In this document: in pieces, positions 20,458 to 37,348 of the stretch
How the letters are laid out: each line of letters starts with the position of its first letter
How positions within the stretch are numbered: position 1 is the first letter of the stretch
Source: a virus
Lineage: Duplodnaviria; Heunggongvirae; Uroviricota; Caudoviricetes
Length of the DNA stretch: 64,000 nucleotides
Virus record (IMG/VR): IMGVR_UViG_3300044798_000244
Location: 1-64,000 of that record
Strand: one strand, 5' to 3'
Position numbers and translations under genes: made by a program
Notes under the pieces: model-generated
The model's database searches: none
Told to the model about the DNA's origin: nothing
Seen by the model: only the letters and a program-made list of their open reading frames with translations

Positions 20458-21411
20458 CTAAGAAACAGTCACTGAAATAAGTGGGCCACCAGAAACTGAA
20501 GTGAACTCAAGAAAAAGAACTCCACTCTCCTCTTCATGTGTAGAAGAGTGATAATAGCCCAGATTGAGAGTTTGAAGAGCTTCTCCAACAACACCTGCGA
20601 TCTTGTCCCAAAGTTTTTTATCAGAAGCTACTCCAGGCTCCTCCTCTCCAGCAACTTCTTCTGAACTATCTGCTAGTTCATCTTGCTCCTCTTCAGTGAG
20701 TTTTTGAACGATCTTCTCTTCGGAATCATCTTTGTCCGAGGGGACTTTGCCTTCATGCATTGAAAGAGCCTTCGGAATCAGAACATGTTTGAGATAAGAC
20801 ATTTTCAGATCCATATCTGGGCTTTCCTGTTCCGGATCAACAATATCCTCAAGAGAACTAAGAGCATCAGTCATTTCTTCATCAGAGGGCCATTCATCAC
20901 TAATCACGTCTGTGTTAATAGCTAACTGAAGAATCTTTTGATCGCTAACACTAATTCCAGGAACTTCACCCACCAACTCCAAGACCCCCTCCTTAATCTG
21001 CACAATAGGCTCAACAGCGATTGAAGGACAGTGAATGCACTTGGCCTTAGTGTTTCGGAAGGTCTTGAAGCACTCGTTACACAAGTAGAGAGTGCCTATC
21101 TTGCTCTCTTTGGTTGGAGGCTTCACCACAGGAATTGGTGTCTCAACTTCTTTGTCAGCCACCTTCCGAACAGCATATTTAGCATTTTTCGGAGTTTGAC
21201 TCTTGACCTTAGTCAGATCCTCATCTTCATAGGTCTCAACACCGAGAGCCTCGTGATCAACATCTGGCTTACTCTGCATGGGCGTCTGCTGAGGAACCTT
21301 TGCCGAAGGAGCGAGCTTTTTCGATGCTTCAGTTATCGTAAGACCCGTTTTGTGGTACTCTCCATCGTCATGGAGGAATCTCATCAGACTTCCCATATCA
21401 TTTGATTCCAT
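20458..21411 (-). CDS. acidic C4 zinc-finger protein carrying the shared EGKVPSDKDDSEEKIVQKLTE module; candidate internal head protein
   Basis: CNECFKTFRNTKAKCIHCPS. Very acidic. Carries one copy of the 21-aa module that is also found twice in 34865..37348. Confidence 0.4.
   Translation of the reverse strand: MESNDMGSLMRFLHDDGEYHKTGLTITEASKKLAPSAKVPQQTPMQSKPDVDHEALGVETYEDEDLTKVKSQTPKNAKYAVRKVADKEVETPIPVVKPPTKESKIGTLYLCNECFKTFRNTKAKCIHCPSIAVEPIVQIKEGVLELVGEVPGISVSDQKILQLAINTDVISDEWPSDEEMTDALSSLEDIVDPEQESPDMDLKMSYLKHVLIPKALSMHEGKVPSDKDDSEEKIVQKLTEEEQDELADSSEEVAGEEEPGVASDKKLWDKIAGVVGEALQTLNLGYYHSSTHEEESGVLFLEFTSVSGGPLISVTVS
20733..20797. repeat. dispersed 62-65 bp repeat, copy 1 of 3
   Basis: cagtgagtttttgaacgatcttctcttcggaatcatctttgtccgaggggactttgccttc is about 93 percent identical to 36040..36103 and 37037..37100. 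Confidence 0.85.
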
Positions 21412-21416
21412 CGGTA

Positions 21417-22007
21417 TTACTCCTTTTTCTCGTCACTTGACATATCAATCAACTGAACGACCGCACCATTGATATCCACCCACTTGCCGGCCTTCCCTGA
21501 ACCCTCAAGATCCAAAAGGTCTTTCACACGATCGGATTTCTGATCACCTTGGGACCAAAACGCGACCTCATGTCGACGTCCTTTTTTTGATATTGGTCTA
21601 ATTTCAACAGGTAAGCACGAAAAGTGTAAGTTCAGAAGGGTCTGTACCGTGTTTGAAACATCCTTCTCGCACAGTATGTAATCCAAGATTGCAAGAGCTG
21701 CTTTATCTTTTGGTAGAACTTGTTTTCCCTGCTCAACAGCCTGGTCAAAAAGCTTATCTACACCAGTACAAGGAACACTCTTACAGTACATTCCTAAGAT
21801 CCTGAGAAGTCTTTTGTAGAGATTAAGATCTTTGGATTCAAGAAGTACTTCTTTGATTTGCATGGACACAATATACCCCTTGGATTCTAATTCAGATTTT
21901 CGCTTCTTAGCTTGCTCTTCATTTGAAATAGACTCTGCACTCCTATATCCAAGACTTGATCGTTTCTTATACTTGTCATTAGGATGGCTATATGTTAAAA
22001 TATACAT
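21417..22007 (-). CDS. hypothetical basic protein
   Basis: 196-aa ORF. Confidence 0.35.
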   Translation of the reverse strand: MYILTYSHPNDKYKKRSSLGYRSAESISNEEQAKKRKSELESKGYIVSMQIKEVLLESKDLNLYKRLLRILGMYCKSVPCTGVDKLFDQAVEQGKQVLPKDKAALAILDYILCEKDVSNTVQTLLNLHFSCLPVEIRPISKKGRRHEVAFWSQGDQKSDRVKDLLDLEGSGKAGKWVDINGAVVQLIDMSSDEKKE

Positions 22008-22012
22008 TGCAG

Positions 22013-23383
22013 TTAATCACCGCCTTTCAGATCTTGAATAGCCTCAACAAGAAGATTTTGAACATTCGCTTGACAAGCAAAGTGTCCAGATCGCACAAAA
22101 AATACATTTCCTACTCGCCGAGCACCAGTCAAGGATTCTTGAAGACGATCAGCTATCTCAGCATCTTCTACAAGGACTGAAAAGTATAAATTCTTATCAA
22201 AACCAACCTGGGCCTCAAAGATTACTCCTACACCATCTAATGTGCTGTGAATCCGTGCACCAGCCAGGATAGTATGACCTATGTTTTTATATTTAGATTC
22301 ATTTGGTACATCTAAAGAAGGAGGTTCAGCCCATTGTTGCTCAAGACTCTCTATATCCTCTGTTTTTTCTACTTCTTCACGTTCCTTAGAAGGAACTTCT
22401 AGAGCTGCAAGTTTAGCTCGATTTCTCGTTCGAGCAATACCTATCATACCATCCCCTCCCCCATCCCATCCACCATAAGACAAGCCTTTTGTTAGTCGAG
22501 AAATTGCTTCTTGATAGTAATCTAAACTGTTAAACCAAAAAGAACTAGCATTCAGTCCTGGTACTTCTCCCCCACCAGTCATCGAGGTTTTTAGGAGGAT
22601 AAGATCTTCTAGAGTTGTTGTATACCATTGTGGTTTCTGGTATTCCATCCTGCCACCAGGTTGAAAGTACACAAATAATCCTCCAGATTGACCCTCCTCA
22701 GTCAATCTCTGAAGGGTTTTTTGGAGTATCAAAAATGAATCTGGTTCACTAAGACTCTCTGACAGCATTTCCAGCTGGCCTCGATCATCTGAACAAGACT
22801 CGACCAGCTTCTGATACACCTTCTCTACACCATCCTTGAGTGTGTGCAGAGGAAACATGACCTTCTCAGATGTAAGATCTTTGTCGGGTTTGAATCGAGA
22901 GATCCACTTGCTGTACACCTGTTGTGCACAGCGAATCTCCGGACAGTCCAGAGCGGACTCAAGTGCCAGATGAATATCAACTCTGCGACCTTCAAGGTCA
23001 ACAGCATCTTCAAGAGATTTATTGTCCATGATGAAGGACGGAAGAGTGAAACAAGATGAGCTATCAATCTGCCCATCAAATATCTCTTGAAAGTTGTCCC
23101 AGTGTTCATTAGGGACAACTATCTTAAGAGCATCTTCGAAGCAAACCGTCCTATCCGTATCACCTTCAAGGATCTCGAGGTTCCACTTCTTCTTTTTCTT
23201 TCCTAGACCAGAGAGGACGGAACGAACAACACCTACCTGTGTAGGTAGATAGGAGATCATGTTCATCGTGGTAGCACCTCCTGTAGACCCTCCACTTCCA
23301 GCAGTGCTGCCAGCAGCACCATCCTCTTGAAGTTTTGATGCTAGATCATAAAATCCGTTAGACATTCTTTGCCTCCCAACCAA
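22013..23383 (-). CDS. hypothetical large protein
   Basis: 456 aa. Gly/Ser-rich N-terminus and a lysine run. No confident motif. Confidence 0.4.
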   Translation of the reverse strand: MVGRQRMSNGFYDLASKLQEDGAAGSTAGSGGSTGGATTMNMISYLPTQVGVVRSVLSGLGKKKKKWNLEILEGDTDRTVCFEDALKIVVPNEHWDNFQEIFDGQIDSSSCFTLPSFIMDNKSLEDAVDLEGRRVDIHLALESALDCPEIRCAQQVYSKWISRFKPDKDLTSEKVMFPLHTLKDGVEKVYQKLVESCSDDRGQLEMLSESLSEPDSFLILQKTLQRLTEEGQSGGLFVYFQPGGRMEYQKPQWYTTTLEDLILLKTSMTGGGEVPGLNASSFWFNSLDYYQEAISRLTKGLSYGGWDGGGDGMIGIARTRNRAKLAALEVPSKEREEVEKTEDIESLEQQWAEPPSLDVPNESKYKNIGHTILAGARIHSTLDGVGVIFEAQVGFDKNLYFSVLVEDAEIADRLQESLTGARRVGNVFFVRSGHFACQANVQNLLVEAIQDLKGGD

Positions 23384-25715
23384 CCATTTTCAGATAAGCA
23401 TTAAGCCTCTCAGGATGACTTCGAAGGAATTGTTCTACATGGGCTGCTTTCTGATGAGCCTCTTCGTATGGAGTACCTTCTCTCATCATACGACCACGCT
23501 CATACAATTCATGAAAGAGATTGAACCTATGTTCAGAAGGATCTCTCATTCTCTCGATCCAGATTTCATCTTTAGGTATGAAATCCCACCTGAAATGATG
23601 ACCGCCTTCTGTGTAGTCATCATCATATGTATTCCGGATCTCTTCACCATCAACTAAGTAGACCAGAACATCATTTGTGGTTTCTCCCCAGAGTTCCTTT
23701 GAGATACCATCTGCTTCCTGAATGGACTCTTGCACTCCTGCAGACCTCCACGCTTCCAGGGATGCCCATCGAACGGTGATCGTGGGTCTTTTAACTTCTA
23801 GCTTCTCCGGCTCCTCACCTGTAAAAGCTAGAGAGAGCCCACTTGGAAGATTGTTTTCTACCCATCTTGCTTGTGTTCTGCTCGAAGGAATAATAACACT
23901 GCTTCCTTGTAGATCTTGAAGCATTTTTCTGCAAACATTATTATAAAATTCGAGAGGTTCTGGTTTTTCAAAATCAGAAACAACAACGTCCTGCCCTTCA
24001 TACGGAGTTGTCACCTCAACAAGAACTTCATCTTTTGTAGGGGTTGACAATATAAAATCACCTTTCTTAGACCATACTGCGAACAGCCAACCCCTATCCA
24101 TCAAAAAGTTCAGAACTTCAGTATACAGAAGATCGCGTTTCCTATCCCTCTCCTTCTTATCCTCCTGAATAGACTCGCCAAGAAGCTTTCGAAGATAATC
24201 TGAAGAATAAATCGCCTCAGAACCTACTTCCGAAGCAAGCTCTTCAGGGCCGTACCGAAGGTACAGATCAACTATAGCACTTCGTTGGACCCTTGTAATT
24301 GTTTTTAGATTCTCTGCACCTAAATGTTGATGACTTACAAGTATCCGAATCGCCCCAGATTCAAGCAGCTCATTAACCTCAGTTCCAGCATCAAGAGCTG
24401 TACGTATGTGTGCAACAGGAACATGTATTAGAGTTCCATCTGAAAGAAGCCAGAACTTAAAATAGGCTTCTTCCCCAGGATACATAGAGGGGGTTCGCAT
24501 GTCCTCTTCTGAAGCAGGTCCAAACTCATCTAGCAGAACTTGCTGCGGTTCTGGAAGAGTTGCTACTGCTTCCTGGATGGGTTCACCAATTTCTTTGAAA
24601 TGGAACCTCTCAAGACCTTCAGTCTTCCCCATAAGAAGTCTGCATACTATATCTGTTAAGATATGGGCACTTCTCGTCTCCAGATCTCCTGGAATCCGAT
24701 GATAATCTTGTCCCACTTCAACATAGATTGATTCAAGATTATATGAAGCAATTACCTCTTCAATAGCAGAACGTTGTCCTTCAGAAGGCTCAAAACTGTT
24801 ACTTAAGTAAATGTCAAGATTACAATCCTGCCAAACATCTCCTTTTATTGCCCCCTCGTCCTGGACTTCCCAAGAAACACCAGCTGCATCTAGAATATCA
24901 GAATGCTGTTCACGCGTTTCATCGTTTCCTACAACCGAACGACCATTATTAAGAAGAAAAAATCGGCCTATTGGAAGTTTAGATATACCTTTTCGTCTTC
25001 TCCAGTATAGAAATAATTTCTTCTGGGCAGGAGGAAGATCATCTCCGATAGTTTCTAAAAGTAAACTTTGTGATTCTTTGGCCACTCTACGACCAAGAGC
25101 TTGTCCAGCGGCCTTGAACTGCTGAGCTGTTCGTGTGGCTCCGGCTTCTGCTTGCTGGATCAGATCCTTGAACTCTTTCCCCAGCCAATTAGCAATAGTG
25201 GTTTTGTAAAAAGGAAGTGTTCGCATCAGAACCTGTACGTGCTTGCAATACTGCCCATATTTTTTGGGGTTCCGAATATCAGGTGATCGATCCTCTGGTT
25301 CACCATACTTAGCATGTTTTTGAGTAAGAAGGTAATCCCCACCATAGTATGTTTGGGCAGGACATTCACAACTCAATTCAACGTTACCATCTTTGAACAG
25401 CTTAGCAGCAACTTTCCTTAGGTCTGCTCGTTTCTTATCTTTGGTCCAGTTACGCCGATCTGAGACCAGCTTCTGAACATCTTTTTCTATATCTTTCCAA
25501 CGGACAACAACATCATACTGAAGACCTTCCTCTGTTCCGCTGTGAACACTAAATGTCCATATATCCTTCTGAATACTAGAAAGTCGAACACCGCCTTTGG
25601 AAATCACACCTTTGACCTTGACTGGATTTGAAAAAAAATCAGGGAAGAGTCGGGTTATTGACTTCTGCTTGGTGTTCAACTGACCAAGAGTGGCTTCTAT
25701 AAGTTTGTGGAACAT
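23358..25715 (-). CDS. large protein with an N-terminal SWIM-type zinc finger
   Basis: CECPAQTYYGGDYLLTQ...YCKHVQVLM fits the SWIM pattern CxC...CxH. 785 aa. Confidence 0.45.
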   Translation of the reverse strand: MFHKLIEATLGQLNTKQKSITRLFPDFFSNPVKVKGVISKGGVRLSSIQKDIWTFSVHSGTEEGLQYDVVVRWKDIEKDVQKLVSDRRNWTKDKKRADLRKVAAKLFKDGNVELSCECPAQTYYGGDYLLTQKHAKYGEPEDRSPDIRNPKKYGQYCKHVQVLMRTLPFYKTTIANWLGKEFKDLIQQAEAGATRTAQQFKAAGQALGRRVAKESQSLLLETIGDDLPPAQKKLFLYWRRRKGISKLPIGRFFLLNNGRSVVGNDETREQHSDILDAAGVSWEVQDEGAIKGDVWQDCNLDIYLSNSFEPSEGQRSAIEEVIASYNLESIYVEVGQDYHRIPGDLETRSAHILTDIVCRLLMGKTEGLERFHFKEIGEPIQEAVATLPEPQQVLLDEFGPASEEDMRTPSMYPGEEAYFKFWLLSDGTLIHVPVAHIRTALDAGTEVNELLESGAIRILVSHQHLGAENLKTITRVQRSAIVDLYLRYGPEELASEVGSEAIYSSDYLRKLLGESIQEDKKERDRKRDLLYTEVLNFLMDRGWLFAVWSKKGDFILSTPTKDEVLVEVTTPYEGQDVVVSDFEKPEPLEFYNNVCRKMLQDLQGSSVIIPSSRTQARWVENNLPSGLSLAFTGEEPEKLEVKRPTITVRWASLEAWRSAGVQESIQEADGISKELWGETTNDVLVYLVDGEEIRNTYDDDYTEGGHHFRWDFIPKDEIWIERMRDPSEHRFNLFHELYERGRMMREGTPYEEAHQKAAHVEQFLRSHPERLNAYLKMVGWEAKNV

Positions 25716-25716
25716 A

Positions 25717-26256
25717 TTATCCTTGTGCTGGCAGTGAACTAATCAACGGATCTGTTAGGAGTCGGAGATTTCGAGTTTTTCCAATATCTGTAACAAAAAC
25801 CTCATCTATCTCGAGACCCCAACCATTAGCAGCATCGCTGATATCCTTGCGAAGCTCTTCCTTAGTATTGCTTATATCACAGCACTCTTTGAAAGTTTTC
25901 TGACTGAAGTACTCGCACAAAACACCAAGAGCTAGGGTCGTAAGAGACTTATCAGCATCATGTACATTTAGAAAGTTCTTGCGTGCATCACAAACTTTGT
26001 ATTGAATAGCACCAGATATAATAATATCGTAACCATCCAGTGTCCGACAGCTTTGATTCTTCAGATCTACAACCTGTGGAGCAGTGTATGCCCACCAAAT
26101 ACTTTGTATCAGAGGCCAGTAGAACCAAATCCCAGGACCAATTTCACAAATACTATGTCCACATGTAATCCGCAGTCCGGTCTGCCAAGGTTCCAATATC
26201 TGGATACGTGGAACAAAGGAAAGAAGCTTCTCAAGTAGATCTCGCAACCATGCCAT
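25717..26256 (-). CDS. SPFH/band-7 (stomatin/prohibitin-like) domain protein
   Basis: 179 aa with a beta-alpha pattern and a GWGLEIDEVFVTDI segment typical of the SPFH core. Hydrophobic N-terminus. Confidence 0.4.
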   Translation of the reverse strand: MAWLRDLLEKLLSFVPRIQILEPWQTGLRITCGHSICEIGPGIWFYWPLIQSIWWAYTAPQVVDLKNQSCRTLDGYDIIISGAIQYKVCDARKNFLNVHDADKSLTTLALGVLCEYFSQKTFKECCDISNTKEELRKDISDAANGWGLEIDEVFVTDIGKTRNLRLLTDPLISSLPAQG

Positions 26257-26294: not shown

Positions 26295-26567
26295 TTAAAT
26301 TTTTCGATTATATATCACTCGCTTAACTTTAGTAATAACACCTTTTGGTATCACAATAACGCCACCTACATCATCATTATCACCAATTGTGCTGGCCAGT
26401 CGAATGACCATAGCATCTTGATTTAGAAGCCAGCCAACTGATACACATTCGAGGGACTCTGTTTTCCCTGCTTCTTCTTGGGAAATCCAAGAATCTGAAG
26501 AAACAATGTCGTTCCAGTAGCAAACAAGAAGGTCTGCATATTTGAATCTCGCCCAGTTGATTTTCAT
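26295..26567 (-). CDS. hypothetical protein
   Basis: 90 aa. Its ATGA start overlaps the stop of the upstream endonuclease gene. Confidence 0.35.
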   Translation of the reverse strand: MKINWARFKYADLLVCYWNDIVSSDSWISQEEAGKTESLECVSVGWLLNQDAMVIRLASTIGDNDDVGGVIVIPKGVITKVKRVIYNRKI

Positions 26568-27373
26568 TGGTGCTGGACCCCAATAAAATTAAGCATTTTC
26601 TGAGTTAAGAGATTTACATCTTTCAACTCATGTTCCCAGATTACCAAGGTCTTGTAACCCGCTTCTTCAAACAGGTTACTTCTTTCTTGTTCGTGCTGCT
26701 TCTCAGGTACACCTGTTACTGCTTGGGAGTGCCAGTAATCACCAAAAAGTTCAATGATCAGTTTCTTATCTTCATTAACGAAATCGGGGCACTTACCAGA
26801 GATAATTTTCTTGCCATCACCAGTAAACTGAAATCCTGCAGTGATCTGGATAATCCATTCTGCAAGAAATATCTCAAGTTTGTTCTGAGCTACTTGTCTG
26901 GCAACCATCTGTTTGGCTACGTATTCAGGATCTTGCCAATGTTGAGTTTGTATTTCTTTCAGCTTCTTGCAAGTTTCAGGAGAACGTTTCTTTCCTCTAT
27001 TACTATTTGCTCTTTTCTTGTTTTCTTCAGGGGAACGAATTCTTCCTCTGTTAGCATCTTGCATCTTCTTAAGAGTTTCAGAAGAAGAATGACATTCACC
27101 TCTTTTATTCTTGCAAGAAGCACATTGACAATCGTCCCTATGAACTCTTCTTCTATTAGAATCACCTATCCTCTTACAAGCTTCAAACGAAAGATGGTGT
27201 CCATAGTTAGGATTATTCTCACCTTTTGTTTCACCTCTTTTAGATCTACAAGAAGCACATTGGCAATTCTCTAGATGAGGTTCCTTCCGTTTAGCTCTAC
27301 AAACTCCGCACGGACAATCTTCTTTATGTGGTTTTCGACCCACTATTATTGCCTTTTCAAAAATACCACCCAA
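26564..27373 (-). CDS. free-standing homing-endonuclease-like protein (zinc ribbons, NUMOD3, Vsr-like nuclease)
   Basis: HKEDCPCGVCRAKRKEPHLENCQCASCRSKRGE...DDCQCASCKNKRGE. NUMOD3-like SPEENKKRANSNRGK. LIIELFGDYWH...GYKTLVIWEHEL. Confidence 0.6.
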   Translation of the reverse strand: MGGIFEKAIIVGRKPHKEDCPCGVCRAKRKEPHLENCQCASCRSKRGETKGENNPNYGHHLSFEACKRIGDSNRRRVHRDDCQCASCKNKRGECHSSSETLKKMQDANRGRIRSPEENKKRANSNRGKKRSPETCKKLKEIQTQHWQDPEYVAKQMVARQVAQNKLEIFLAEWIIQITAGFQFTGDGKKIISGKCPDFVNEDKKLIIELFGDYWHSQAVTGVPEKQHEQERSNLFEEAGYKTLVIWEHELKDVNLLTQKMLNFIGVQHQ

Positions 27374-28128
27374 CGCGAACTTTTTTGTATATCATCTTGC
27401 AAAAACTTCATTTCTTCCTTACCTTCATCAAACAAGGTCTGCCCATCAATATCACCAGGCAGAACCATACCAGCAGCTCTAAGGGTGTGTCCTTCTGCTT
27501 GCTTCACAAGAGCTTTCGTGTACTGACACAGAAAATCATTGATATGTTGACTATCGATAACATCAGAAGGAATAATTCTTTTGGTCCCAACTACAAAAAG
27601 ACTTGTAGTACCTGAAGGCACGTTCTTGCAGTAAAGATAGCCACCTACAGCTGGATCGTCATGATTCTCGTCCATCCACCAACGGAAATTCGCTCCTGCA
27701 TAGATATTGAACGTGCGAAATGCTTCAGTAGCCAAAACTAGGTCTGTGCGTATGTTATCAAGTACAGCTATTCCAGCTAATGACCAGGTCGGGAATTCAT
27801 TCCAGATAAAGTTTGCATTTTTGTTCGGATAGACTATAGCTATGGATTTGAACTGGGCTGAGATCTGTGCTCTGGCCTGTCCTGTAGCGTAGTTCACCAT
27901 TTGAGAGATTTTGTATGCTGAGTGTGTGTTCCAGTATCGAACAGCATTATCAATTAGCTGCTCAATAGACGCATCTGGGATAGCTAAAGTTCTCGGCTGG
28001 AACTCCTGCTTAATCCAAGTTACATATTTAGTTTTGTTTGTTAGGATTGAGAGACCGGCCATACCATGCGTCCTTAGTATTTCATCAAAGCCCACCTGAT
28101 AAAGGAATCTCCTTACCAGCAGCATCAA
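27346..28128 (-). CDS. hypothetical head/neck structural protein
   Basis: 260 aa, directly downstream of the capsid gene and its terminator. The start may be the internal Met near 28065. Confidence 0.35.
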   Translation of the reverse strand: MMLLVRRFLYQVGFDEILRTHGMAGLSILTNKTKYVTWIKQEFQPRTLAIPDASIEQLIDNAVRYWNTHSAYKISQMVNYATGQARAQISAQFKSIAIVYPNKNANFIWNEFPTWSLAGIAVLDNIRTDLVLATEAFRTFNIYAGANFRWWMDENHDDPAVGGYLYCKNVPSGTTSLFVVGTKRIIPSDVIDSQHINDFLCQYTKALVKQAEGHTLRAAGMVLPGDIDGQTLFDEGKEEMKFLQDDIQKSSRWVVFLKRQ

Positions 28129-28439: not shown

Positions 28440-29030
28440 TTACGTACCTAGCGTATAACCAGTTTGCAAGTTGGTTATACTTCCCCAAGTAAACATCCCG
28501 GCATTTATAACTTTGAATGCGGCCGAGCTAAGGAAGCCCTTCTGCGACATAAGGTCGCTGGTCGTCAGCGTCGGGGTCGCGAATAAAGGTATGTAGGGGC
28601 AGTATATAAATCCCGCGTGCAGGTAGTCCGGACCACGGAACCCTAAGGTGTACCGATTGGTACTCTTGAAGGGGTTCTGGATCACAGTCACCTGATTGTT
28701 CAACACACCAATCTTCACAGGACCCGTCGGCGTCAACTTACCAAGGTTCGAAACAGGGCTGAAATGATCCTTCCCAAGCTGCATAATGACCCGGGCAACA
28801 TTATTACCACAGATCATGAAATTCGCCGTAGCACGCTTGGTTTTCTCGAAGATAGCATTTGAACCCTGATAGATACGATCAAGGAACTCCAGCTTCTTAA
28901 AGACCCAGGCCTCACCCTGCGACGGACGAGCATCCCAATCAGACACCTGCGTAGCCGCATCAGCACCTTCGGCCGCTTCATCGATCATATCGAGACCGGT
29001 CTGGTCGATGGTGAACTTACAATTTGTTAC
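28440..29030 (-). CDS. gp23: major capsid protein gp23, exon 2 (C-terminal part)
   Basis: ANFMICGNNVARVIMQL and LGFRGPDYLHAGFIYCPYIPLFATPTLT match T4 gp23 (GNFIIASRNVVNVL; VGYKGPNEMDAGIYYAPYVALTPLRG). The frame is open upstream of the listed Met as far as 29030. Confidence 0.7.
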   Translation of the reverse strand, partial: VTNCKFTIDQTGLDMIDEAAEGADAATQVSDWDARPSQGEAWVFKKLEFLDRIYQGSNAIFEKTKRATANFMICGNNVARVIMQLGKDHFSPVSNLGKLTPTGPVKIGVLNNQVTVIQNPFKSTNRYTLGFRGPDYLHAGFIYCPYIPLFATPTLTTSDLMSQKGFLSSAAFKVINAGMFTWGSITNLQTGYTLGT

Positions 29031-30445
29031 TCACCTTATAGTGGGGTAGGTCATTTCTGCCTACCTCTGCATGTTACCATGCAGTTCAGACTATACCTTC
29101 ATCCCGTTATCCTATACTCCGGGAGGCTACCGTAGCCTCTACAATCTCTTGTAGAGACATAGTCGTTACACTGCTTTTTAAGCAGCTCGGTATTGTCCTC
29201 AGCATTACCTGGTAGGATGTCCACCGAATTGAGTAGCTTTCTAAATCGTTATTACTAACAATTCGAGGCCAAGTTACTAACCTCGCCACCAAGAAACTTC
29301 ACAAGCTCAGACTCAAGATCAATCCCATGCAATCTGTTACTTAGTAACCTATCTCCTGATAGGCGGATGAGTCATTTCTGCTCATCTCTACATGTCACCA
29401 TGTAGTTCAGACTATATCATCAACCAATGAATTGGTTGGCCGCCGTAGCCTCATGGATCACTCCAAAAGACATAGTCGTTACACCATTGTCATTGAAAAG
29501 AAACTTCTCAGTCCAGATAAGAAAACCTAAATTATTTTCTTTTGCGAAGATAGAAGCAGCTTTGAATTTTATCTGATTTAACTCATCTGATATGAAGATC
29601 TCAGGTTTTACTTCAACCAGAACTTGTTCTCCATCTTGTAGAGATACAAGAAAATCAGGTAGATAGTTATGAATGCTTCCATCCTTCAAAGTATACGCAA
29701 TAGAAAAAGGTTCAGCAACAACATCAAGAACATCAACACAAGCATCTAGAACTAACAAGGCCCGCTTCTCATAAGAAGATCTGTAGAAGACATTTTTGGA
29801 AAGCTGTGAAAGAAATAACCAACCTCGTTTGAAACAGGAAGGGCTGTTATTTCCTTCTAATTGAATCCTCTCTATCATAGATCGAGACATTTTAGATTTG
29901 GTCTCGAGCTTTCGAGGATAGGCAAGCTTCGCCATCCTCTCATCCGTTTCCTTTGTCAGGCCTTTATTCCATGCTGGACGATTTGCAGATGGATTTCCTT
30001 CCCCTGTTCTCTGCAGACTTATCTTCATCAATCGAAAATTATCTGTTTTCGTCAATCCTTTATTCCAAGGATCCTTGTGACCACGTTTCATTGCTTCTAT
30101 AGTTGTCTCTGGTAACTTTCTTCCTTTAAGAGATTTTCCATAGCATTCTGAAGAGCAATGAATCGTTGGTGTTGAAGCATAGTACCTAAAAACTTTCTTG
30201 CATATAGGACATATGCTCTCAACTGTTCTAGTATGCTTTCCTTTACCATTATGACCATGTAGATATGTGTTTCCTAACTTTACTACCCCACCACATCCAC
30301 AAGCACATAAACGAGTTGTTGCATCTGACTGAGTCATTTACTATTATACTTTTCAAAGATCTGGCTCGGTATTATCTCAAAGAGACGTCCACCGAATTAA
30401 GCAGCTTTACAACACACATTGCTGTATGAAGGGCCCATTTTATTA
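29006..30445 (-). mobile_element. putative group I intron, about 1.4 kb, interrupting the capsid gene and carrying an endonuclease ORF
   Basis: The capsid reading frame is broken. Exon 1 ends AAIDMQKA-stop and exon 2 resumes ...TGLDMIDEAAE, aligning with contiguous T4 gp23 (SIELAQDLRAVHGMDADAE). The flanks are non-coding and hairpin-rich, with GTTCAGACTATA / AUAGUC-type elements. Confidence 0.55.
29420..30337 (-). CDS. intron-encoded homing-endonuclease-like protein: zinc ribbons, NUMOD-like repeats, and a PD-(D/E)xK nuclease
   Basis: CACGCGG..HGHNGKG; CPICKK; repeats GHKDPWNKGLTK / RPAWNKGLTK. C-terminal YLPDFLVSLQDGEQVLVEVKPE fits PD...(E)VK. Confidence 0.55.
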   Translation of the reverse strand: MTQSDATTRLCACGCGGVVKLGNTYLHGHNGKGKHTRTVESICPICKKVFRYYASTPTIHCSSECYGKSLKGRKLPETTIEAMKRGHKDPWNKGLTKTDNFRLMKISLQRTGEGNPSANRPAWNKGLTKETDERMAKLAYPRKLETKSKMSRSMIERIQLEGNNSPSCFKRGWLFLSQLSKNVFYRSSYEKRALLVLDACVDVLDVVAEPFSIAYTLKDGSIHNYLPDFLVSLQDGEQVLVEVKPEIFISDELNQIKFKAASIFAKENNLGFLIWTEKFLFNDNGVTTMSFGVIHEATAANQFIG

Positions 30446-31324
30446 AGCCTTCTGCATATCAATCGCGGCACCCAGTGACCACTTAGCGCGCAGTGGGAAG
30501 TCAATCGCTTCCACAGCGGACTGCGTCACCGTCACGTTAACCTCAGGCACCCCATCCCGATTAGTGTATGCATCTACAGGCAGATCATACTGATAATCAT
30601 AGGTGACCAGAATAGTCGATCCACTATAACCAGCTGCAACTGTGAAGGAATACACACCAGCAGCCGTAATCGACCCATTTCCAGTGATTCCATCTCCGGT
30701 GATAACACCAGCAGCACTGCACGTACCTAACGTGGTATACGTAGTTCCAGATTTGGACTCAACCTTGGTATTCTCAAGATTGATCAGACCAGGAGCCTGA
30801 ACGACAGTTCCAGACTTAGCTCCGCTACCAGTTCCAACTGACTCACGAACAGTGCGAGCCATCGCATACTGACGCTCAGACTTTCCAGTCGCATGACCGG
30901 TCTTAGCACCGATCATCGTGTCGCCAGCAGTCACCTCACCCTTAGTAGTGCCGTACTGAACATCCAGATAGAACACGGAAGCAATACGCCGATCAATCGC
31001 CTGAACGATGGCAACCTCATTAAGGACCAGCGTCGGGATCAAGGCGGCAATCACAGGCAGTTGTATGCCAAGAAAATTCACCGAGTCCTCAGTCGTGGCC
31101 TCGAACACCTTGCTGTTCTGGCGGCAACCACACTCAATAATGGCATTGTACAAGCACTGTGCAATGTTACGCTGCTCATAAACCGAAATCTCCCGGCCCT
31201 GAGTCTCCTGAACCCACTTTCCAACAGATCGAACGAAGGGACGAATCTTGGGATGCTCCAACAGAGCCGCCCGTGACTCGTCGATCTTTTTCATCTCCAA
31301 CGAGATGGCTTCCTGAATATTCAT
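30443..31324 (-). CDS. gp23: major capsid protein gp23, exon 1 (N-terminal part). The terminal codons and stop are probably intronic.
   Basis: PVIAALIPTLVLNEVAIVQAID matches T4 gp23 RRAIPNLIAFDICGVQPM. AIDFPLRAKWSLGAAIDM matches AKSRQLKAAYSIELAQDL. AAGGAGA ribosome-binding site 8 nt upstream of ATG at 31324. Confidence 0.7.
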   Translation of the reverse strand: MNIQEAISLEMKKIDESRAALLEHPKIRPFVRSVGKWVQETQGREISVYEQRNIAQCLYNAIIECGCRQNSKVFEATTEDSVNFLGIQLPVIAALIPTLVLNEVAIVQAIDRRIASVFYLDVQYGTTKGEVTAGDTMIGAKTGHATGKSERQYAMARTVRESVGTGSGAKSGTVVQAPGLINLENTKVESKSGTTYTTLGTCSAAGVITGDGITGNGSITAAGVYSFTVAAGYSGSTILVTYDYQYDLPVDAYTNRDGVPEVNVTVTQSAVEAIDFPLRAKWSLGAAIDMQKA

Positions 31325-31355: not shown

Positions 31356-34007
31356 TTACATCCAGTTCTTCATCAGACCACCAACCTGCTTATCCACCTT
31401 GTCCTGCTCAGGATCTACCGACCGCCCACGAACAACCACGTCCCTCAGTGACTGCGGGTGAAGTGCACCACGCTGAGCTACCTGGACGAGGCTCTCAATG
31501 AGTTGGTCGACATCTCCAAGGCTCTGACACTTCTCAAGAAGTGCTTGAGTGTTGTCATCAGCCTCCAGACGACAAGCGGACAACCGCCGGTCAAAGTAAT
31601 CCTTCAGAACTTCTATTCGACCCTCACAGATCGAATTACTAGCTGTTTTCACGAGCTCCTGCTGATGAGCAGTATGCTGTACTGAGATCTTCTCATTCAG
31701 TTTCTTCACATCCGGAGAAATTTTCTTGGCTTCAACGACCTGAGAAGCTTTCTTCTCAACCATAGTCCGAAGACCAATAATCTCAGTAGCTGCTGTTTGA
31801 AGTTTTTTAGACATGACCCGAATCTGAACATCGTTCTGACTTTTTGATGCTTCAAGCAGTGTGTCCCGCTCAGCACGAGTGCACGCTTCTTTAATCCGAA
31901 GATCAATCAAGGCGTCCAGAGGAGGAACAGTAACCTTAGATTCTCTCGGAGCATTTTGAGCTGCAGCAATCCTATCAGTAGTATTCGAAAGAGCTTGGTT
32001 GACCAGTTGATCAGTCTCCTCCGGAGTTCTATCAATCATTCGAGCAACGATAGGAACGGCTTCCCCATAATTAACATTTTTCTCTTTCTCAACTCGAAGG
32101 AACAATTTTAGAAGTCGGACCTCATCATCGGCAGTTACAAACTCATCTTCATCAACCTTGGACTCATCAGTCACCTTCTTTCGAGGTTTGTTGATCACAA
32201 TATATCCAATACCTTCTTCACCTTCATAGTCCTGAGCTATCTTAATCGCAGCTTGTTTAGAACCTGGACCATACTCGTCACCTGCTGGAAGGACAACAAA
32301 CCAACCCTCTTCTCCTTCATATCTAATCACCTGGGTCTTTTCGTATCTCTCATCAACCTTGGACTCATTAGGAATACCTTTTGGTGAAGATCGGGACCAC
32401 TGATCCTCAAGCTCATCTTCAGAACCTGCTTCTCTTTGATCTTCAGTATCATTTTCACCTTCAATTTCACTTTCAAATGGAACTTTGGTAAGAGAAGCTA
32501 TGTTTTTACCGGCCTGCATGATTTCAGATTTATCTGCTGATCTAATAAGAGTGATAGGTTCTGGTTCACCTTCAAAAACACCACAAAGACGATACTCTAT
32601 TTGTCCTTCCTCATCCTCGTGCGGACACACGACCAGAGACGTAAGACCTTCAACTGTCTCAGCGATCTTGGACTCATTCTGAGTCTTTCGTTTATACTGC
32701 CGGAGTTCGGATTTCAACCAATCATCACTACCATTACGTATGAGGTTCTGAGCAGCCGCATAGTCAAGCTTGTCTGGTGATCCAATACGATCTCCCCTAT
32801 CTTCTGGAGTCTCAGCGTTGATCTTTTTCATCCACCAAGTGACGAACTTCTTATCATAAGCCAGATTTTTCGCTACCACATCTGAATTCTCAGCGATCTT
32901 GGACTCGAATGGTGACATCTCTTCTTCCTTTTCGGCCTCAGGAGAACCAGGTCCTTTCATGTCCTCTAGAGGCGGATTCTCTGCAGCCATCTCACCAGCA
33001 TTATCAACTTCAGTTCCAGTAAGCCCAACATCTTCAGATGGAACAGCAGGGATCGCTGATGCGAAAACATCAACAGAACCATCAGACCGAATAGTTACCT
33101 TATCAGATCCTTCTACGGTCAGCATCTTGTTAGAGCCATCCGGAGTGGTAACTACGATGTCCATTCGACCTTCAGTAATCTTTTTGACAGAAGCTTTCGT
33201 GTATTTCATCTCACCTATCTTGGTTTTGATAGTCAAGGTCACGGCCTTACCTTCAGTCAGCTTGCCACTCTTGATCTGCTCAGCAACTGTGCTTTTGTTC
33301 ATTTTTGGTTCCTGTCCTTTAAGGCACTTGCAAGCACCACAATTCTGGCACTTGTTCTTGTGATTGCACCGCATTGATTCGAGAATCCGATGAGCAAACT
33401 GCTTCTCACCAGGTTTACTTTCGTTGGACTCAGCTGTATTACGAACAGCGTTAATAATGTTCCTCTTTACATCTAAAGGCACAGCATCAAATGTTGATGG
33501 ATCGGCAGTCGTGTCAGTTGTAATATATTTATAGCTCTCAGGAACAACTCGCTTAAAAGAAGTATCCCCTTCTTTTACCTCTTCAAGATCCCCTTCCGCA
33601 CGAGTACTGCATCCTACCTGGCATCCTGCCTCGAGCAAGGTGTTAACAATCCGACCACAAGGTGTATCCAGAATATCAAATGTTTGGTAGACCTTATTCT
33701 CATTCTCATCTATCCACATTCTATGTATAACATGAGAAGTCAACTGCAAATCAGATGCTGATTCCTTAGGGTGTTCAGCATGTCCATAAAGAGTTCTACT
33801 TTCCAACTTCCTCTGAAGCTCTTTGTCAGAAAGAACTTTCTCCCAGAGAGCTTGCTCATAAAGCCGGTTGTTAGCATTGGTTTCACCAATGTTACAAATG
33901 TTGTAAGTAACTCTGGCTAACACACCCGAAGGAAGCTTTTCATTTGAACCATGTAACCTGCCTTGTTCAGACATGAATTCATTCAGTATCATACTGCTAC
34001 TCCACAA
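31356..34007 (-). CDS. gp21: prohead core protease gp21, N-terminal about 200 aa, fused to an acidic extension of about 680 aa that may be scaffold- or core-like
   Basis: ETNANNRLYEQALWEKV, LYGHAEHPKES and FDILDTPCGRIVNTLLEAGCQVGCSTRAEGDLEE match T4 gp21 (DTVNRNGRVYPLAVMEAAV; VGELNHPTQHE; AIVLNTPCGRILEGLIDGGVLLGVSSRGVGSLDS). The rest is acidic, with LxE/IxE-rich coiled segments. Confidence 0.6.
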   Translation of the reverse strand: MWSSSMILNEFMSEQGRLHGSNEKLPSGVLARVTYNICNIGETNANNRLYEQALWEKVLSDKELQRKLESRTLYGHAEHPKESASDLQLTSHVIHRMWIDENENKVYQTFDILDTPCGRIVNTLLEAGCQVGCSTRAEGDLEEVKEGDTSFKRVVPESYKYITTDTTADPSTFDAVPLDVKRNIINAVRNTAESNESKPGEKQFAHRILESMRCNHKNKCQNCGACKCLKGQEPKMNKSTVAEQIKSGKLTEGKAVTLTIKTKIGEMKYTKASVKKITEGRMDIVVTTPDGSNKMLTVEGSDKVTIRSDGSVDVFASAIPAVPSEDVGLTGTEVDNAGEMAAENPPLEDMKGPGSPEAEKEEEMSPFESKIAENSDVVAKNLAYDKKFVTWWMKKINAETPEDRGDRIGSPDKLDYAAAQNLIRNGSDDWLKSELRQYKRKTQNESKIAETVEGLTSLVVCPHEDEEGQIEYRLCGVFEGEPEPITLIRSADKSEIMQAGKNIASLTKVPFESEIEGENDTEDQREAGSEDELEDQWSRSSPKGIPNESKVDERYEKTQVIRYEGEEGWFVVLPAGDEYGPGSKQAAIKIAQDYEGEEGIGYIVINKPRKKVTDESKVDEDEFVTADDEVRLLKLFLRVEKEKNVNYGEAVPIVARMIDRTPEETDQLVNQALSNTTDRIAAAQNAPRESKVTVPPLDALIDLRIKEACTRAERDTLLEASKSQNDVQIRVMSKKLQTAATEIIGLRTMVEKKASQVVEAKKISPDVKKLNEKISVQHTAHQQELVKTASNSICEGRIEVLKDYFDRRLSACRLEADDNTQALLEKCQSLGDVDQLIESLVQVAQRGALHPQSLRDVVVRGRSVDPEQDKVDKQVGGLMKNWM

Positions 34008-34798
34008 ATAGACCTGATTTTATCTTGAAAGAAAAGAGTCCAGCAACTTCTGTTTCCATTCACTCTGGAATTACAGGCAGCACACAATGTTATTAAGTTT
34101 TCTTGTTTACAGTTCTCTTTGATGTAATCTATGTGATGAACATCTAGCTCTCTGTAATTCTCCTCTCTTGTTCTACCACAAAGTTGACAGGTATTACCAT
34201 CCCGCTCTCTAATACAATTACGGAGCTTGTTGTTAAAAACACAAGGATATTCATCTTGGGATATTCCACCACACCAGTTGCAATTCTTTTCACCTCTTTG
34301 AGCATCACCTATACATTTCTTAGCATCTTCAGTATGATGACCACCGGAGAAAGTAACTCCTAGACCACGTTTACCAAAGTTAGCATTATTCACTCCTGTA
34401 TGCTTCTGCCTATTCTTCTCAATAGCCTCTTCTGTATGTTTATGGCCCTTCCAAGGATTTAGATCGCCCTTACCATTGTGACCATGAATAAATTCAGGAA
34501 TTCCAGCAGCTCTGTGCCACTCCTTAATAGAAATTCGTTCCCCGCATCCGCACTCACACAGAGGAGCCTCTTCTAGTCCACTTAGTATTCTATTCACTCT
34601 TGAATATAGTGAAAAATCACTTATCTTCTCATGGTTGAGAATGTACTGAGGAATTCCATTTTCTTTGTGAGAAGCTCGTACCTTTATCAAACCTTCACAT
34701 CCACAAGCACAAACTCTATCTGGATAGTACTCCAGATTCTTGTAGTCGTCCCAAACGAAATCATGTATGGAATTTTTAAGAATCATAAATGATGGCAA
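33989..34798 (-). CDS. HNH homing-endonuclease-like protein with zinc ribbons and a NUMOD-like repeat
   Basis: CACGCEG...CECGCGE...HGHNGKG. GHKHTEEAIEKNRQKHTG. C-terminal HNH motif LDVHHIDYIKENCKQENLITLCAACNSRVN. Overlaps the start of the gp21 fusion gene by 19 nt. Confidence 0.6.
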   Translation of the reverse strand: MPSFMILKNSIHDFVWDDYKNLEYYPDRVCACGCEGLIKVRASHKENGIPQYILNHEKISDFSLYSRVNRILSGLEEAPLCECGCGERISIKEWHRAAGIPEFIHGHNGKGDLNPWKGHKHTEEAIEKNRQKHTGVNNANFGKRGLGVTFSGGHHTEDAKKCIGDAQRGEKNCNWCGGISQDEYPCVFNNKLRNCIRERDGNTCQLCGRTREENYRELDVHHIDYIKENCKQENLITLCAACNSRVNGNRSCWTLFFQDKIRSICGVAV

Positions 34799-34864
34799 AG
34801 CTGTGATTTGATTCCTTTCTGGTTCACAGCCAGAAACCAGTCCTATAAAGATGGTCCAAAAGAT

Positions 34865-37348
34865 TTACAGTTTATAAACAGTCCAGAATGGTTTTCTATA
34901 CCACTTCTGTGAATCCGGCACGTTGCTACCAGTAATTTCAACACCTTGCTTCTCGTCAAGGGCTTTGACCGTGGCCTCTTCGACCTCTACTCGGAAACTA
35001 TTAGCATCAACGATCTGAACAAAATCTCCTACCTTCACTGGCTCGTCCTCAACTTTCGCTTCTTTCAGACCCAAAAGATCTTTAGCAATCTGGACGGAAC
35101 GTCGTTCGGTGGGCTCTTCACCCTCAGGACCAAATCCTTCCTCTTCATCATGCACACCCTGAGAAATGCTCTTGATATCCACACCTAAAATCTGAGCAAG
35201 GATTCCTGCATCAGACATTGTCCAACCTTCGTCATTCAACATCCCACGAACAAGTTCAACTCCTCTATTTCTACCTACTCGTCTAACCAAAGAATCAAGA
35301 AGTTGCTTAACTTGATCTACAGGAACCTCTTGATTTCGTTGAATATAAGCAGAGAACAGTTCTGATAACTCAATAATTTCATATTCACGTCTGGTAGACC
35401 CTGTATCCTCTTTCACGGGTCTCTTAGACTCATTCGGACCTGTTATTTTTCTTGGTGTTCCTATAACAGATTTGACATCCTTATTCCGCTTCATCATCAC
35501 CTTAGCATCATTCTCATCAAAAGCCATAACGCGAGTTGACTTCTTCTCACCACTCTGCAGAACAAAATCAACTTGGAACACATCTTTGGTCAGGGCAGTC
35601 ATATCCGAGTACTCATTCTCTTTGACTTGGTTTTTCTTATTCATTTTAGCTTCACCACATCCACCAGCTTCCATCTTCTTCAACTTCATATAGTACTTAG
35701 GATCTTCAGTTAGATGGTCCATGGCAATTTGCTGGGCTTTTGAATGGTCGTCAGTATGTTCCTTCTCGACCTTTGTACCAACTGCTAACTGCACTTTATC
35801 GAAGTCCCCAGGTTTCTTACCGGCGTTCTTGGCCAGACCATCTTTCTCTGCTTCGGCAATCTTAGATTCACTTTCCTTCTTGTGAACCTCACCTCTGAAA
35901 GACTTGTCATCAATATAACAGTACTTAACGTACTCACCTTCAGCCAGCCCATGCTCTTTATCTACACCAGAAACAGTACGAACTCGACCACCACGATCTA
36001 CACAGGACTGAAATCCTGCAGGCTCGTTCAGATTTTGCTCAGTAAGTTTTTGGATGATCTTCTCTTCGGAATCGTCTTTGTCTGAGGGGACTTTGCCTTC
36101 AGTAGCTTGTTCTTTCTGTCCACGGGTTTTCAGCTCATCTTCAAGCTGTTGGAGAGTCGTCTCATCATCAGGAGAGCGATCCTTTTTAGCCCGGAGCTGC
36201 TGAGCACGTTGGAGCAGAGAATCTTCACCAACCTCTTGTGTGACAGAAGGATCAAGATCTTCCTGAATACCGCTTCCGATCACCTCAGCATACTCGCTGT
36301 CATCAAGGTGTCCGAGAACCTCCTGAGCAAGGTCCTGAAGGCCTTGCTCAGTAAGCTTTCCACCAGCCATCTCATAGAGAGCTGCAAATTCAGGCTTGAA
36401 GCGGAACTCGCGGTTGTTAATCTGGACAACAATATCCTTACTGCCTTCATCAATAACCTGGATACTGAAGGTGTTTCCTTTATCATCTTTTACACTCATA
36501 GTCTCAGAGAGCTGCTTGGACTCTCGGGGCTTCACACCTTTCATATTTTTCTCTGCTGATAGAGGAACTTCTTCTTTAGGTTCGTTCTCTGCCCCTAAAG
36601 GCATCTCTTCTCCACCAGGCTCCTCACCTTCCTCTTCCTCAGCTTCAATTTCCTCTTCTTTCTGAGGAACTAAATACTTCATAACAACATCTCGCTCAAG
36701 TTCTGCGATCTTGACCTTATTACTGTCAAGTGCAGCAAGAATGAATTTCGCCACATCATGAGGATCAAGTTCATTCTCTTTCGCTGAGAACAGTTCTTTT
36801 CCCTCTTGATCAGTGATCTGTAGGTCTTCAGTCTCACCAGAATCGCCCTTCTTAGCAACTACATAGAAGTGAGTTGTGTCGTTCTGACCCAAGTAAACCT
36901 TATCAAAATCAGCTTCTACGGCTTCATGCTTATCATCAGGCTCCAATTCATCTGGTGCAGGTTCCTCTCCGACATCAGCACCTGGCTGAAAGTCCTTGTT
37001 AGGAATACCAGGCTGTCCATCATCAGTTGGACCAGCTTCAGTAAGTTTTTGGATGATCTTCTCTTCGGAATCGTCTTTGTCCGAGGGGACTTTGCCTTCA
37101 GAGGTAAAGATCTTCTGAGCTAACTGGCCTTCCCAACCAGGAGTCAAGGCTACACCCTCGGGAACAGCACCAGCCGGCCAGGACTTCGTCTCAAGGAAGA
37201 CCTCATAAGCAGCCATGTGGTCTTTATTAGCAGGGTCAAACCATTCGGTAATAGTTCTGCCTTGCGAAAGAAGCTCAGCAGACTCGTTGAGCATGTTGTT
37301 AATCAGACTCTTCTGCACTGTAGATCTCCTTAAAAGCTTAGAACCCAA
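34865..37348 (-). CDS. large acidic prohead core / internal head protein candidate carrying two copies of the EGKVPSDKDDSEEKIIQKLTE module
   Basis: 827 aa, about 25 percent Asp/Glu. Upstream of the gp21 and gp23 genes, as T4 gp67/gp68 are. Contains the segment VGTKVEKEHTDDHSKAQQIAMDHLTEDPKYYMKL. Confidence 0.4.
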   Translation of the reverse strand: MGSKLLRRSTVQKSLINNMLNESAELLSQGRTITEWFDPANKDHMAAYEVFLETKSWPAGAVPEGVALTPGWEGQLAQKIFTSEGKVPSDKDDSEEKIIQKLTEAGPTDDGQPGIPNKDFQPGADVGEEPAPDELEPDDKHEAVEADFDKVYLGQNDTTHFYVVAKKGDSGETEDLQITDQEGKELFSAKENELDPHDVAKFILAALDSNKVKIAELERDVVMKYLVPQKEEEIEAEEEEGEEPGGEEMPLGAENEPKEEVPLSAEKNMKGVKPRESKQLSETMSVKDDKGNTFSIQVIDEGSKDIVVQINNREFRFKPEFAALYEMAGGKLTEQGLQDLAQEVLGHLDDSEYAEVIGSGIQEDLDPSVTQEVGEDSLLQRAQQLRAKKDRSPDDETTLQQLEDELKTRGQKEQATEGKVPSDKDDSEEKIIQKLTEQNLNEPAGFQSCVDRGGRVRTVSGVDKEHGLAEGEYVKYCYIDDKSFRGEVHKKESESKIAEAEKDGLAKNAGKKPGDFDKVQLAVGTKVEKEHTDDHSKAQQIAMDHLTEDPKYYMKLKKMEAGGCGEAKMNKKNQVKENEYSDMTALTKDVFQVDFVLQSGEKKSTRVMAFDENDAKVMMKRNKDVKSVIGTPRKITGPNESKRPVKEDTGSTRREYEIIELSELFSAYIQRNQEVPVDQVKQLLDSLVRRVGRNRGVELVRGMLNDEGWTMSDAGILAQILGVDIKSISQGVHDEEEGFGPEGEEPTERRSVQIAKDLLGLKEAKVEDEPVKVGDFVQIVDANSFRVEVEEATVKALDEKQGVEITGSNVPDSQKWYRKPFWTVYKL
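36040..36103. repeat. dispersed 62-65 bp repeat, copy 2 of 3
   Basis: cagtaagtttttggatgatcttctcttcggaatcgtctttgtctgaggggactttgccttc. Confidence 0.85.
37037..37100. repeat. dispersed 62-65 bp repeat, copy 3 of 3
   Basis: cagtaagtttttggatgatcttctcttcggaatcgtctttgtccgaggggactttgccttc. Confidence 0.85.

Follow-up and report, generated by a model that had tools for sequence, protein, structure and literature searches.

A conserved 21-residue peptide repeated in two acidic proteins of an uncultivated T4-like phage and its possible role as a cleavable linker

The repeat and the two proteins that carry it

The virus record IMGVR_UViG_3300044798_000244 of IMG/VR (Duplodnaviria; Heunggongvirae; Uroviricota; Caudoviricetes) was analyzed over its positions 1 to 64,000, and this whole stretch of 64,000 nucleotides (nt) is referred to here as the window. 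It contains the structural block of a T4-like myovirus, in which every gene lies on the minus strand. Along the direction of transcription the block starts with genes for the large terminase, the portal, a trypsin-like protease, an 827-amino-acid (aa) acidic protein, an HNH/NUMOD3 endonuclease and an 883-aa protease-scaffold protein; it continues with a gp23-like major capsid protein (MCP) gene containing two introns, a gp13-like gene, an SPFH protein gene, several genes of no assigned function, the gene of a 317-aa acidic protein, and the sheath and baseplate genes. The genes for the 317-aa protein (20458–21411, minus strand) and the 827-aa protein (34865–37348, minus strand) have in common a short repeat encoding a peptide that ends in K-L-T-E, and it is this peptide, hereafter the module, whose distribution, probable function and DNA-level history are considered below.

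The repeat unit measures 63 nt, or 21 codons, and is present in three copies, all on the minus strand and all translated in frame as EGKVPSDKDDSEEKI(I/V)QKLTE; an exhaustive Hamming scan of both strands, together with a six-frame BLOSUM scan, revealed no further copy. Copy A (20692–20754, minus strand; EGKVPSDKDDSEEKIVQKLTE) forms aa 220–240 of the 317-aa protein, while copy B (36038–36100, minus strand; EGKVPSDKDDSEEKIIQKLTE) and copy C (37037–37099, minus strand; again EGKVPSDKDDSEEKIIQKLTE) form aa 417–437 and aa 84–104 of the 827-aa protein, respectively. Copies A and B are identical at 57 of 63 nt (90.5%), A and C at 59 of 63 (93.7%), and B and C at 61 of 63 (96.8%), and the borders of the repeat are sharp, with at most 1–2 nt of identity past the unit. 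A first-pass annotation of this DNA had described three near-identical copies of a 62-bp element; the number is exactly right, the unit is 63 nt rather than 62, and the identities span 90.5–96.8%. The annotation placed its first copy (20733..20797) some 41 nt away, so that it overlaps copy A by only 22 nt, and its other two copies within 1–3 nt of their positions. A chance origin was rejected, since 100 dinucleotide shuffles gave no expected match, and the occurrence of the module at the corresponding sites of homologues from independent metagenomes likewise excludes chance or artefact. Within the 827-aa gene, copies B and C form a direct repeat with a spacing of exactly 999 nt (333 codons), and recombination between them would remove aa 105–437 in frame.

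Both carriers are acidic, as had been claimed, with isoelectric points of 4.56 (317-aa protein) and 4.70 (827-aa protein). The smaller contains a Cys-x2-Cys...Cys-x2-Cys motif, and neither Pfam nor PHROG gave it a match, nor did a fold search of its AlphaFold2 (AF2) model against BFVD yield anything at E ≤ 0.001. The larger has a DUF5661 domain at aa 515–560 and, besides copies B and C, a six-residue short form of the module, GGKLTE. Neither protein matches a known head protein by Pfam, PHROG or the fold search of the 317-aa model, and tblastn searches with both whole proteins against 50,697 phage records returned one DUF5661 match, in a 735-kb uncultured phage, or nothing. In the AF2 models the modules fall in linkers of low predicted confidence (pLDDT) between folded islands, copy A lying in a low-confidence flexible segment (aa 221–263) between folded parts of the 317-aa protein.

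The two proteins had been called otherwise unrelated head-region proteins. Within the window their similarity by BLASTP is indeed limited to the module, but in the distant relatives L011, L012 and L034 domains of both are fused in one polyprotein, the 317-family domains being joined to the DUF5661 and 'STRVxAFD' domains of the 827-aa protein in single proteins of 730–860 aa. As to the designation as head-region proteins, the 827-aa family is encoded near the gene for the head protease: the two genes are adjacent in L036, L037, L039 and L041, with the 827-family gene directly upstream of the Peptidase_S77 gene, and they are separated by one or two genes in the window, L001 and L006. The 317-aa gene lies between neck and tail genes and is not strictly part of the head block.

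The module in related phages and its short form

The module recurs in the relatives of both carriers and in a third family of proteins. Six distinct homologues were identified for the 317-aa protein (42–58% overall identity), and in each of them the module occupies the equivalent position, with no variation in E-G-K-V-P or K-L-x-E. Among relatives of the 827-aa protein the nearest is P0002, which is 68% identical and encoded on a 125-kb contig; at site B, the position of copy B, its module has diverged to EGKVPSKDDDDAKIVKKLTE. A more remote one (P0005, 28% identical) has two modules, of which one is at the orthologous site B. The protease-scaffold of the 125-kb relative (L001) also carries one module, in its C-terminal extension, that of L020 carries two, and an 896-aa relative (L027) has three.

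Further viral contigs were found using gapped degenerate DNA patterns, a first and stricter pattern having given no match on viral contigs because it was too specific. A profile search with the 827-aa family against 1.84 billion representative proteins returned 182 matches at E ≤ 1e-10, and the best 150 of these contain 50 clean modules, spread over 37 proteins. The consensus of the modules reads E-G-K-[V/I]-P-x(1-4)-D-x-D-[S/P/D]-E-x-x-K-I-K-K-L-T-E. The final residue (P1) is Glu in 50 of 50, at P3 48 modules have Leu and two have Met, and Lys occupies P4 in 41 of 50, while P2 is free (Thr in 32, Ile in eight, the remainder being Lys, Leu, Asn, Tyr, Ser, Asp or Met). A profile made from the module with 10 residues of flank on each side found nothing at E ≤ 10 among 5.8 billion proteins, tblastn with the module consensus found no match in cultured phages, and a metagenome scan with the 317-aa family identified three loci, all previously found in this analysis. 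Pfam recognized nothing besides DUF5661 in ten module-bearing relatives, and the literature yielded neither a description of the cassette nor a paper mentioning DUF5661.

Conservation at the protein level across these genomes marks the module as an old peptide motif, and it is almost certainly a functional cassette that operates at that level. Its presence in homologues of the 317-aa and 827-aa proteins and in relatives' protease-scaffolds supports the earlier proposal of a shared functional module of head-assembly proteins.

At three orthologous positions the long module alternates with a six-residue form, E-[S/G/P]-K-[V/L/I/T]-x-E. The first is site C of the 827-aa family, which is long in the window and short in relatives: P0002 has EGKVNE there, exactly 15 codons shorter, and L006 has EGKLTE. 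The second is the middle of the protease-scaffold, where the arrangement is reversed; the window has ESKIAE (32658–32675, minus strand; aa 445–450) at the place at which the L001 protease has the full long module, and the two align as ...NESKIAE|TVEGL in the window and ...QKLTE|KVEGL in L001. The third follows the 'PKAL' helix of the 317-aa family, with the long form in the window and six homologues and the short form in L034 (GESKVNEQ) and in L011 and L012 (AEPKTNEQ). The GGKLTE of the 827-aa protein (36347–36364, minus strand) likewise has counterparts in P0002 (GGKLTE) and P0005 (EGKMTE).

Short motifs of this kind are also numerous elsewhere in the same proteins. ESK[V/I]xE occurs in the window, besides the ESKIAE at 32658–32675, as ESKIAE at 32889–32906 and 35852–35869 and as ESKVDE at 32349–32366 and 32148–32165. 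Relatives retain it in their protease-scaffold proteins as ESKVNE, ESKVDE and ESKVTE, and the fused polyproteins of distant relatives are punctuated by ESK[V/T]xE. The more general [ED][SG]K[VLIM]xE is found five times in the window against 0.5 expected, and each of the five lies in either the protease-scaffold or the 827-aa protein. For K[LI]TE the count is eight against 0.9 expected, six of the eight being in the 317-aa, 827-aa and protease-scaffold proteins. When these proteins are compared with 24 others encoded in the window, their density of Lys at P4 of [VLIM]xE is about 5.6 times as high. ESK[V/I]xE is predicted from these patterns to be probably the main cleavage motif of the clade.

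The fusions described above for L011, L012 and L034 are not the only rearrangement of these domains. The 'FQSCVDRGGRVRTVSG...RGEVHKKE' domain of the 827-aa protein occurs inside the Peptidase_S77 protease-scaffold proteins P0003 and P0004, so that domains are shuffled among these proteins in different phages, which suggests a pool of prohead-core domains joined by putatively cleavable linkers.

Cleavage by the head protease and its alternatives

The gene for the 883-aa protease-scaffold fusion (31356–34007, minus strand) lies between the two module-bearing genes, and relatives also encode a protein of this type. Its T4 gp21-like N-terminus is a Peptidase_S77 domain (PF03420 at 1e-08; PHROG 207, head maturation protease, at 1.8e-27) and its C-terminus resembles a scaffold. 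Directly after the catalytic domain it has SGKLTE (33252–33269, minus strand; aa 247–252), of which G, K, L and E are invariant in three aligned proteases; the proteases of T4, phiKZ and SPN3US auto-process at this position, and SGKLTE is presumed to be an auto-cleavage site. The stretch between the S77 domain and SGKLTE (33300–33400; aa ~205–235) is rich in cysteine, with the pattern C-x5-C-x2-C-x2-C-x-C; three of its Cys (the first, the second and the last) do not vary among the three aligned sequences, the others being common to the closer relative, and it may form a metal-binding knuckle.

Sites of gp21-type proteases follow the rule (L/I)-x-E, with cleavage after the Glu, as established in T4, in which gp23 is cut after F-L-T-E65 (checked in deposited sequences). 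Because the invariant pattern of the module is this same rule, with Glu at P1 in every instance, P3 always Leu or Met and P2 free, and with an S77 protease encoded between the carriers, we infer that the module is a linker cassette cut by a gp21-type (S77) head protease after its terminal Glu, and assign this reading a probability of about 0.6. The proposal of the first-pass annotation that the L-T-E ending matches the T4 prohead protease consensus is upheld by these features. The mechanism envisaged is that a portable 21-residue cassette, composed of E-G-K-[V/I]-P, an acidic stretch and K-I-x-K-L-T-E, would be placed between folded domains of the prohead-core proteins of a clade of uncultivated large T4-like myoviruses (the 827-aa family, the 317-aa family and the protease-scaffold of relatives); the Peptidase_S77 protease, presumed to be that of the protease-scaffold fusion, would cut after the Glu of K-L-T-E during head maturation, and the cut would separate the flanking domains. 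EGKVP, the acidic loop and a short amphipathic helix probably serve either to keep the site accessible or to dock it to the protease, the scaffold or the shell.

A candidate site is also present in the MCP. Its N-terminal part contains SKVFE followed by ATTED (31100–31114, minus strand), and [KR][VL][FN]E|ATTED is retained in the MCPs of four of five related phages compared, L020 having V at the first position. SKVFE|ATTED, which falls near the position of LTE65|AEIGG in T4 gp23, is presumed to be a maturation cleavage site.

The module can be compared with several known systems, and functionally it would amount to a gp21-type site joined to a capsid-targeting peptide like that of T4. Like the sites of T4 gp21, it ends in L-T-E and is accompanied by an S77 protease gene nearby, and the candidate sites in the protease's own C-terminal extension recall the auto-processing of T4 gp21, phiKZ gp175 and SPN3US gp245. 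Sites in T4, phiKZ and SPN3US, however, have 'very few apparent determinants' beyond P3 and P1, whereas the module has about 17 more conserved upstream residues (E-G-K-V-P, the acidic loop and K-I-x-K) and a strong preference for Lys at P4; its own cleavage is predicted here from sequence pattern. A second parallel is the capsid targeting sequence (CTS) of the T4 internal proteins IPI, IPII and IPIII, an N-terminal stretch of some 10 residues with a gp21 site at its end, which has been proposed to act as a prohead-core address that is then cut off; the SPN3US paralogues gp53 and gp54 similarly have an identical 15-residue leader with cleavage motifs. The CTS has the sequence MKTYQEFIAE. Like the CTS, the module is a short peptide common to proteins that are otherwise dissimilar by BLASTP and ends in a protease motif. 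It is, though, internal (aa 220–240 of 317; aa 84–104 and 417–437 of 827), twice as long, repeatable within one protein and also found in the protease-scaffold. Because it is not an N-terminal leader and by inspection has no sequence similarity to the T4 peptide, the module is not a member of the CTS family but a variant of the same kind of device. A third parallel is provided by protease-scaffold fusions and viral polyproteins: here too, multi-domain acidic proteins have reiterated candidate sites between domains, and domains are shuffled among genes. The fusion can be likened to that of the P2 gpO type, and the propeptides of phiKZ and SPN3US head proteins are long and cut several times at redundant sites. 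These multi-cut polyproteins differ from the present system in that one type of site here is an extended cassette evolving in concert within each genome.

Several observations weigh against cleavage as the function, or as the whole function, of the module. Its 21 conserved residues far exceed what gp21-type proteases are known to need, and cleavage may not be its main role. The window's own protease does without the long module, which is dispensable at that site. The 317-aa gene sits among neck and tail genes rather than beside the protease gene. The AF2 models of the carriers are poor (mean pLDDT 57.6 and 41.7), which makes the linker evidence weak, and the placement of SKVFE in the MCP near the gp23 cleavage position rests on a weak alignment (0.4 bits). 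The closest cultured phages, which are various myoviruses, are only about 30% identical over the protease domain. The within-genome similarity of modules described below, finally, may stem solely from old conversion events, with no receptor in common.

With about 17 residues conserved beyond the few determinants of known sites, the module is probably more than a bare site, and an added docking or targeting role is a tentative extension of the cleavable-linker reading that we hold with distinctly less confidence than cleavage itself. At its extreme, docking would replace cleavage altogether. The module would then be a short linear motif that binds one partner, such as the scaffold core, the inner shell surface, the portal or a chaperone, and stays uncut, the L-x-E being part of a binding helix. 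The length of the conserved part agrees with this, as does the behavior of copies within one genome, which keep lineage-specific residues despite scrambled synonymous sites (L036), as co-evolution with a single receptor predicts; in the T4 CTS, moreover, residues 4 and 7 serve targeting and residues 8 and 10 processing. Docking of an uncut motif nevertheless leaves it unexplained that the invariant features match a gp21-type site precisely (Glu in 50 of 50, P3 Leu or Met, P2 free), and that the module swaps at orthologous positions with a form, E-S/G/P-K-V/L/I/T-x-E, whose six residues are too short for a docking helix. We regard it as unlikely.

A cut made by some other enzyme is more improbable still. 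The candidates would be a host protease or the trypsin-fold protease encoded upstream of the head genes (41324–42115), which matches PHROG 11383 and 9683 ('protease') and has PF00089 counterparts in L001 and L039. Some chymotrypsin-fold enzymes are Glu-specific, and a gene of this kind is kept near the head genes in the window and in relatives. For S77 enzymes, however, a cut after Glu when P3 is Leu or Ile is the documented rule, and the module and short motifs sit inside the S77 protease-scaffold itself, right after the catalytic domain; nothing ties the trypsin-like protein to head maturation, and it also has a weak match to a baseplate-hub/lysozyme family.

The cleavable-linker reading and the docking role can be combined in a more speculative form, which we consider doubtful, in which the module would be a new kind of internal, repeatable 'dock-and-cut' capsid tag. 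Such a tag would bind one receptor in the prohead (the protease, the scaffold or the inner shell), co-evolve with it in each lineage and then be cut at the Glu.

DNA-level history of the copies and its significance

The three copies in the window are more alike at the DNA level than their peptide demands. If the same peptide is encoded with the window's codon usage, 49.4 of 63 identical nucleotides are expected, compared with the 57–61 of 63 observed; under this null the probability of 59 or more is 1e-4, and 61 or more, the value of B and C, was reached in none of 200,000 simulations (P below 5e-6). Where residues are identical, the window copies use identical codons in 80–90% of cases, as against 49–57% for orthologous genes of the window and a relative and 60% for the protease and 310-aa copies within that relative, which share 20 of 21 residues and 53 of 63 nt. 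Because codon sharing is so much higher among the window copies than among the orthologues or in the relative's own pair, the window copies have exchanged sequence recently, and we hold recent gene conversion or copying in this lineage to be very probable, in agreement with the gene conversion invoked by the first-pass annotation. Rare codons common to the window copies (GGC, GTC, CCC, TCG and TCC) fit a common descent of their DNA.

Other genomes extend this picture in both directions. Two module copies in L037 are identical over 60 of 60 nt, those of L039 match at 54 of 60 and those of L038 and L041 at 52 of 60, and those of L036 match at 53 of 63 nt although all 21 residues, lineage-specific ones included, are identical. 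This range, from identity down to the baseline, implies that conversion has recurred and that synonymous sites then decayed while very strong selection held the peptide, and argues against selection on nucleotides. The latter had been offered alongside conversion in the earlier annotation and is contradicted by relatives such as L036, in which the peptide is kept while synonymous sites are scrambled, and by the lack of RNA structure described below. At the peptide level, copies in one genome or protein share lineage-specific residues, with EGIVPDFDKDSEEEAIRKMNE, EGKAP.DKDKEQVKIKKLTE and EG[KR]VALDKDDESVKIKKLIE each appearing twice; module identity is 0.82–0.85 within a genome or protein and 0.58–0.62 between them (permutation p ≤ 2e-4), a difference that holds when the window's copies are left out. 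Recurrent gene conversion would account for such within-genome likeness, as would co-evolution with a single common partner.

A function of the repeat as nucleic acid (an RNA structure or regulatory site, a target of recombination or homing, or an antisense element), with the peptide as a by-product, is largely refuted: the DNA identity in the window does exceed what the peptide requires, rare codons are common to the copies and the region is rich in homing endonucleases, but the peptide is conserved across genomes while synonymous positions vary freely, and folding of the copies is no stronger than that of shuffled sequences (z +0.4 to +1.5 in the mRNA sense, −0.3 in antisense). Rfam gave no match at any of the three copies, there is no consistent antisense open reading frame (ORF), and a scan for promoter- or terminator-like sites, which covered only the region of copies B and C, showed none at these two copies.

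The direction of exchange can be suggested from the residues themselves. Copies B and C resemble the 317-family version, with 21 residues, S-D-K-D-D and Gln at P5, and are unlike the relative's orthologous site B, which has 20 residues and Lys at P5; this likeness suggests copying into B and C from A or from a protease copy since lost. The corresponding versions in the sister genome differ (EGKVPSKDDDDAKIVKKLTE at site B and EGKVNE at site C of P0002). Gene conversion or templated copying would accordingly have homogenized the three copies recently, with the 317-family version as the probable source; copy B would have overwritten an older module, and copy C would have grown from a short EGK[V/L]xE site through the gain of exactly 15 codons. 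That a mobile mini-element had recently inserted was considered and rejected for copies A and B, as the orthologous sites in relatives already carry the module; at copy C, expansion of a short site by templated copying is the better explanation. The pattern resembles concerted evolution by gene conversion as known elsewhere, in that paralogues are more alike than orthologues, the ends of the tract are the ends of the repeat and identity forms a continuum from 100% to baseline. It differs in that a tract of no more than 63 nt is involved, situated in frame in unrelated genes at distances of 1 kb and 15 kb, and in that the extent of this tract is exactly that of a functional peptide.

The head block of the window also contains three endonuclease ORFs (one borne by an intron, two free-standing) and two introns. 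An HNH/NUMOD3 homing-endonuclease ORF (33989–34798) lies between the 827-aa gene and the protease gene, where a relative has a gene encoding 509 aa; the 827-aa ORF is a fusion whose C-terminal 76 aa (34868–35098) derive from residues 318–394 of that relative's 509-aa gene. A second endonuclease-like ORF (NUMOD3 with a DUF559/Vsr-like domain, 26564–27373) is situated just downstream of the gp13-like neck gene (27349–28062). The gp23-like MCP gene (28446–31324, minus strand) is divided into three exons (31324–30446, a 57-nt mini-exon at 29335–29279, and 29024–28446) and is uninterrupted in a relative. Its intron 1 carries a TnsA-like endonuclease ORF (29420–30337), intron 2 is an Rfam group I intron (29067–29289), and the two share a part that is 77–78% identical (29031–29171 and 29352–29484). 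Double-strand breaks made by these endonucleases could promote local conversion. The head-neck block also encodes an SPFH/Band 7 protein (PF01145, 1.3e-16; 25717–26256), with a counterpart in the same place in L001 (19488–20039).

No major paradigm is altered by these findings, but they bear on how head proteins of such phages can be recognized. Known gp21-type sites, as in T4, phiKZ and SPN3US, are minimal (x-x-E) and hard to predict from sequence. The clade described here appears to use a recognizable extended cassette and a six-residue short form, marking inter-domain linkers of the protease-scaffold and of neighboring acidic multi-domain proteins. If the module were in fact a dock-and-cut tag, polyproteins would be loaded and then split into separate packaged cargos, scans for the cassette would reveal which proteins are packaged throughout a clade of large phages that are uncultivated, and the tag would be usable for loading foreign proteins into capsids; on the more cautious reading the cassette is a candidate for such a tag. 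In either case the module offers a natural instance of a short functional peptide evolving in concert, with freshly converted copies alongside copies kept identical by selection alone, and it should provide a sequence handle for predicting the processed, and probably packaged, proteins of such phages.

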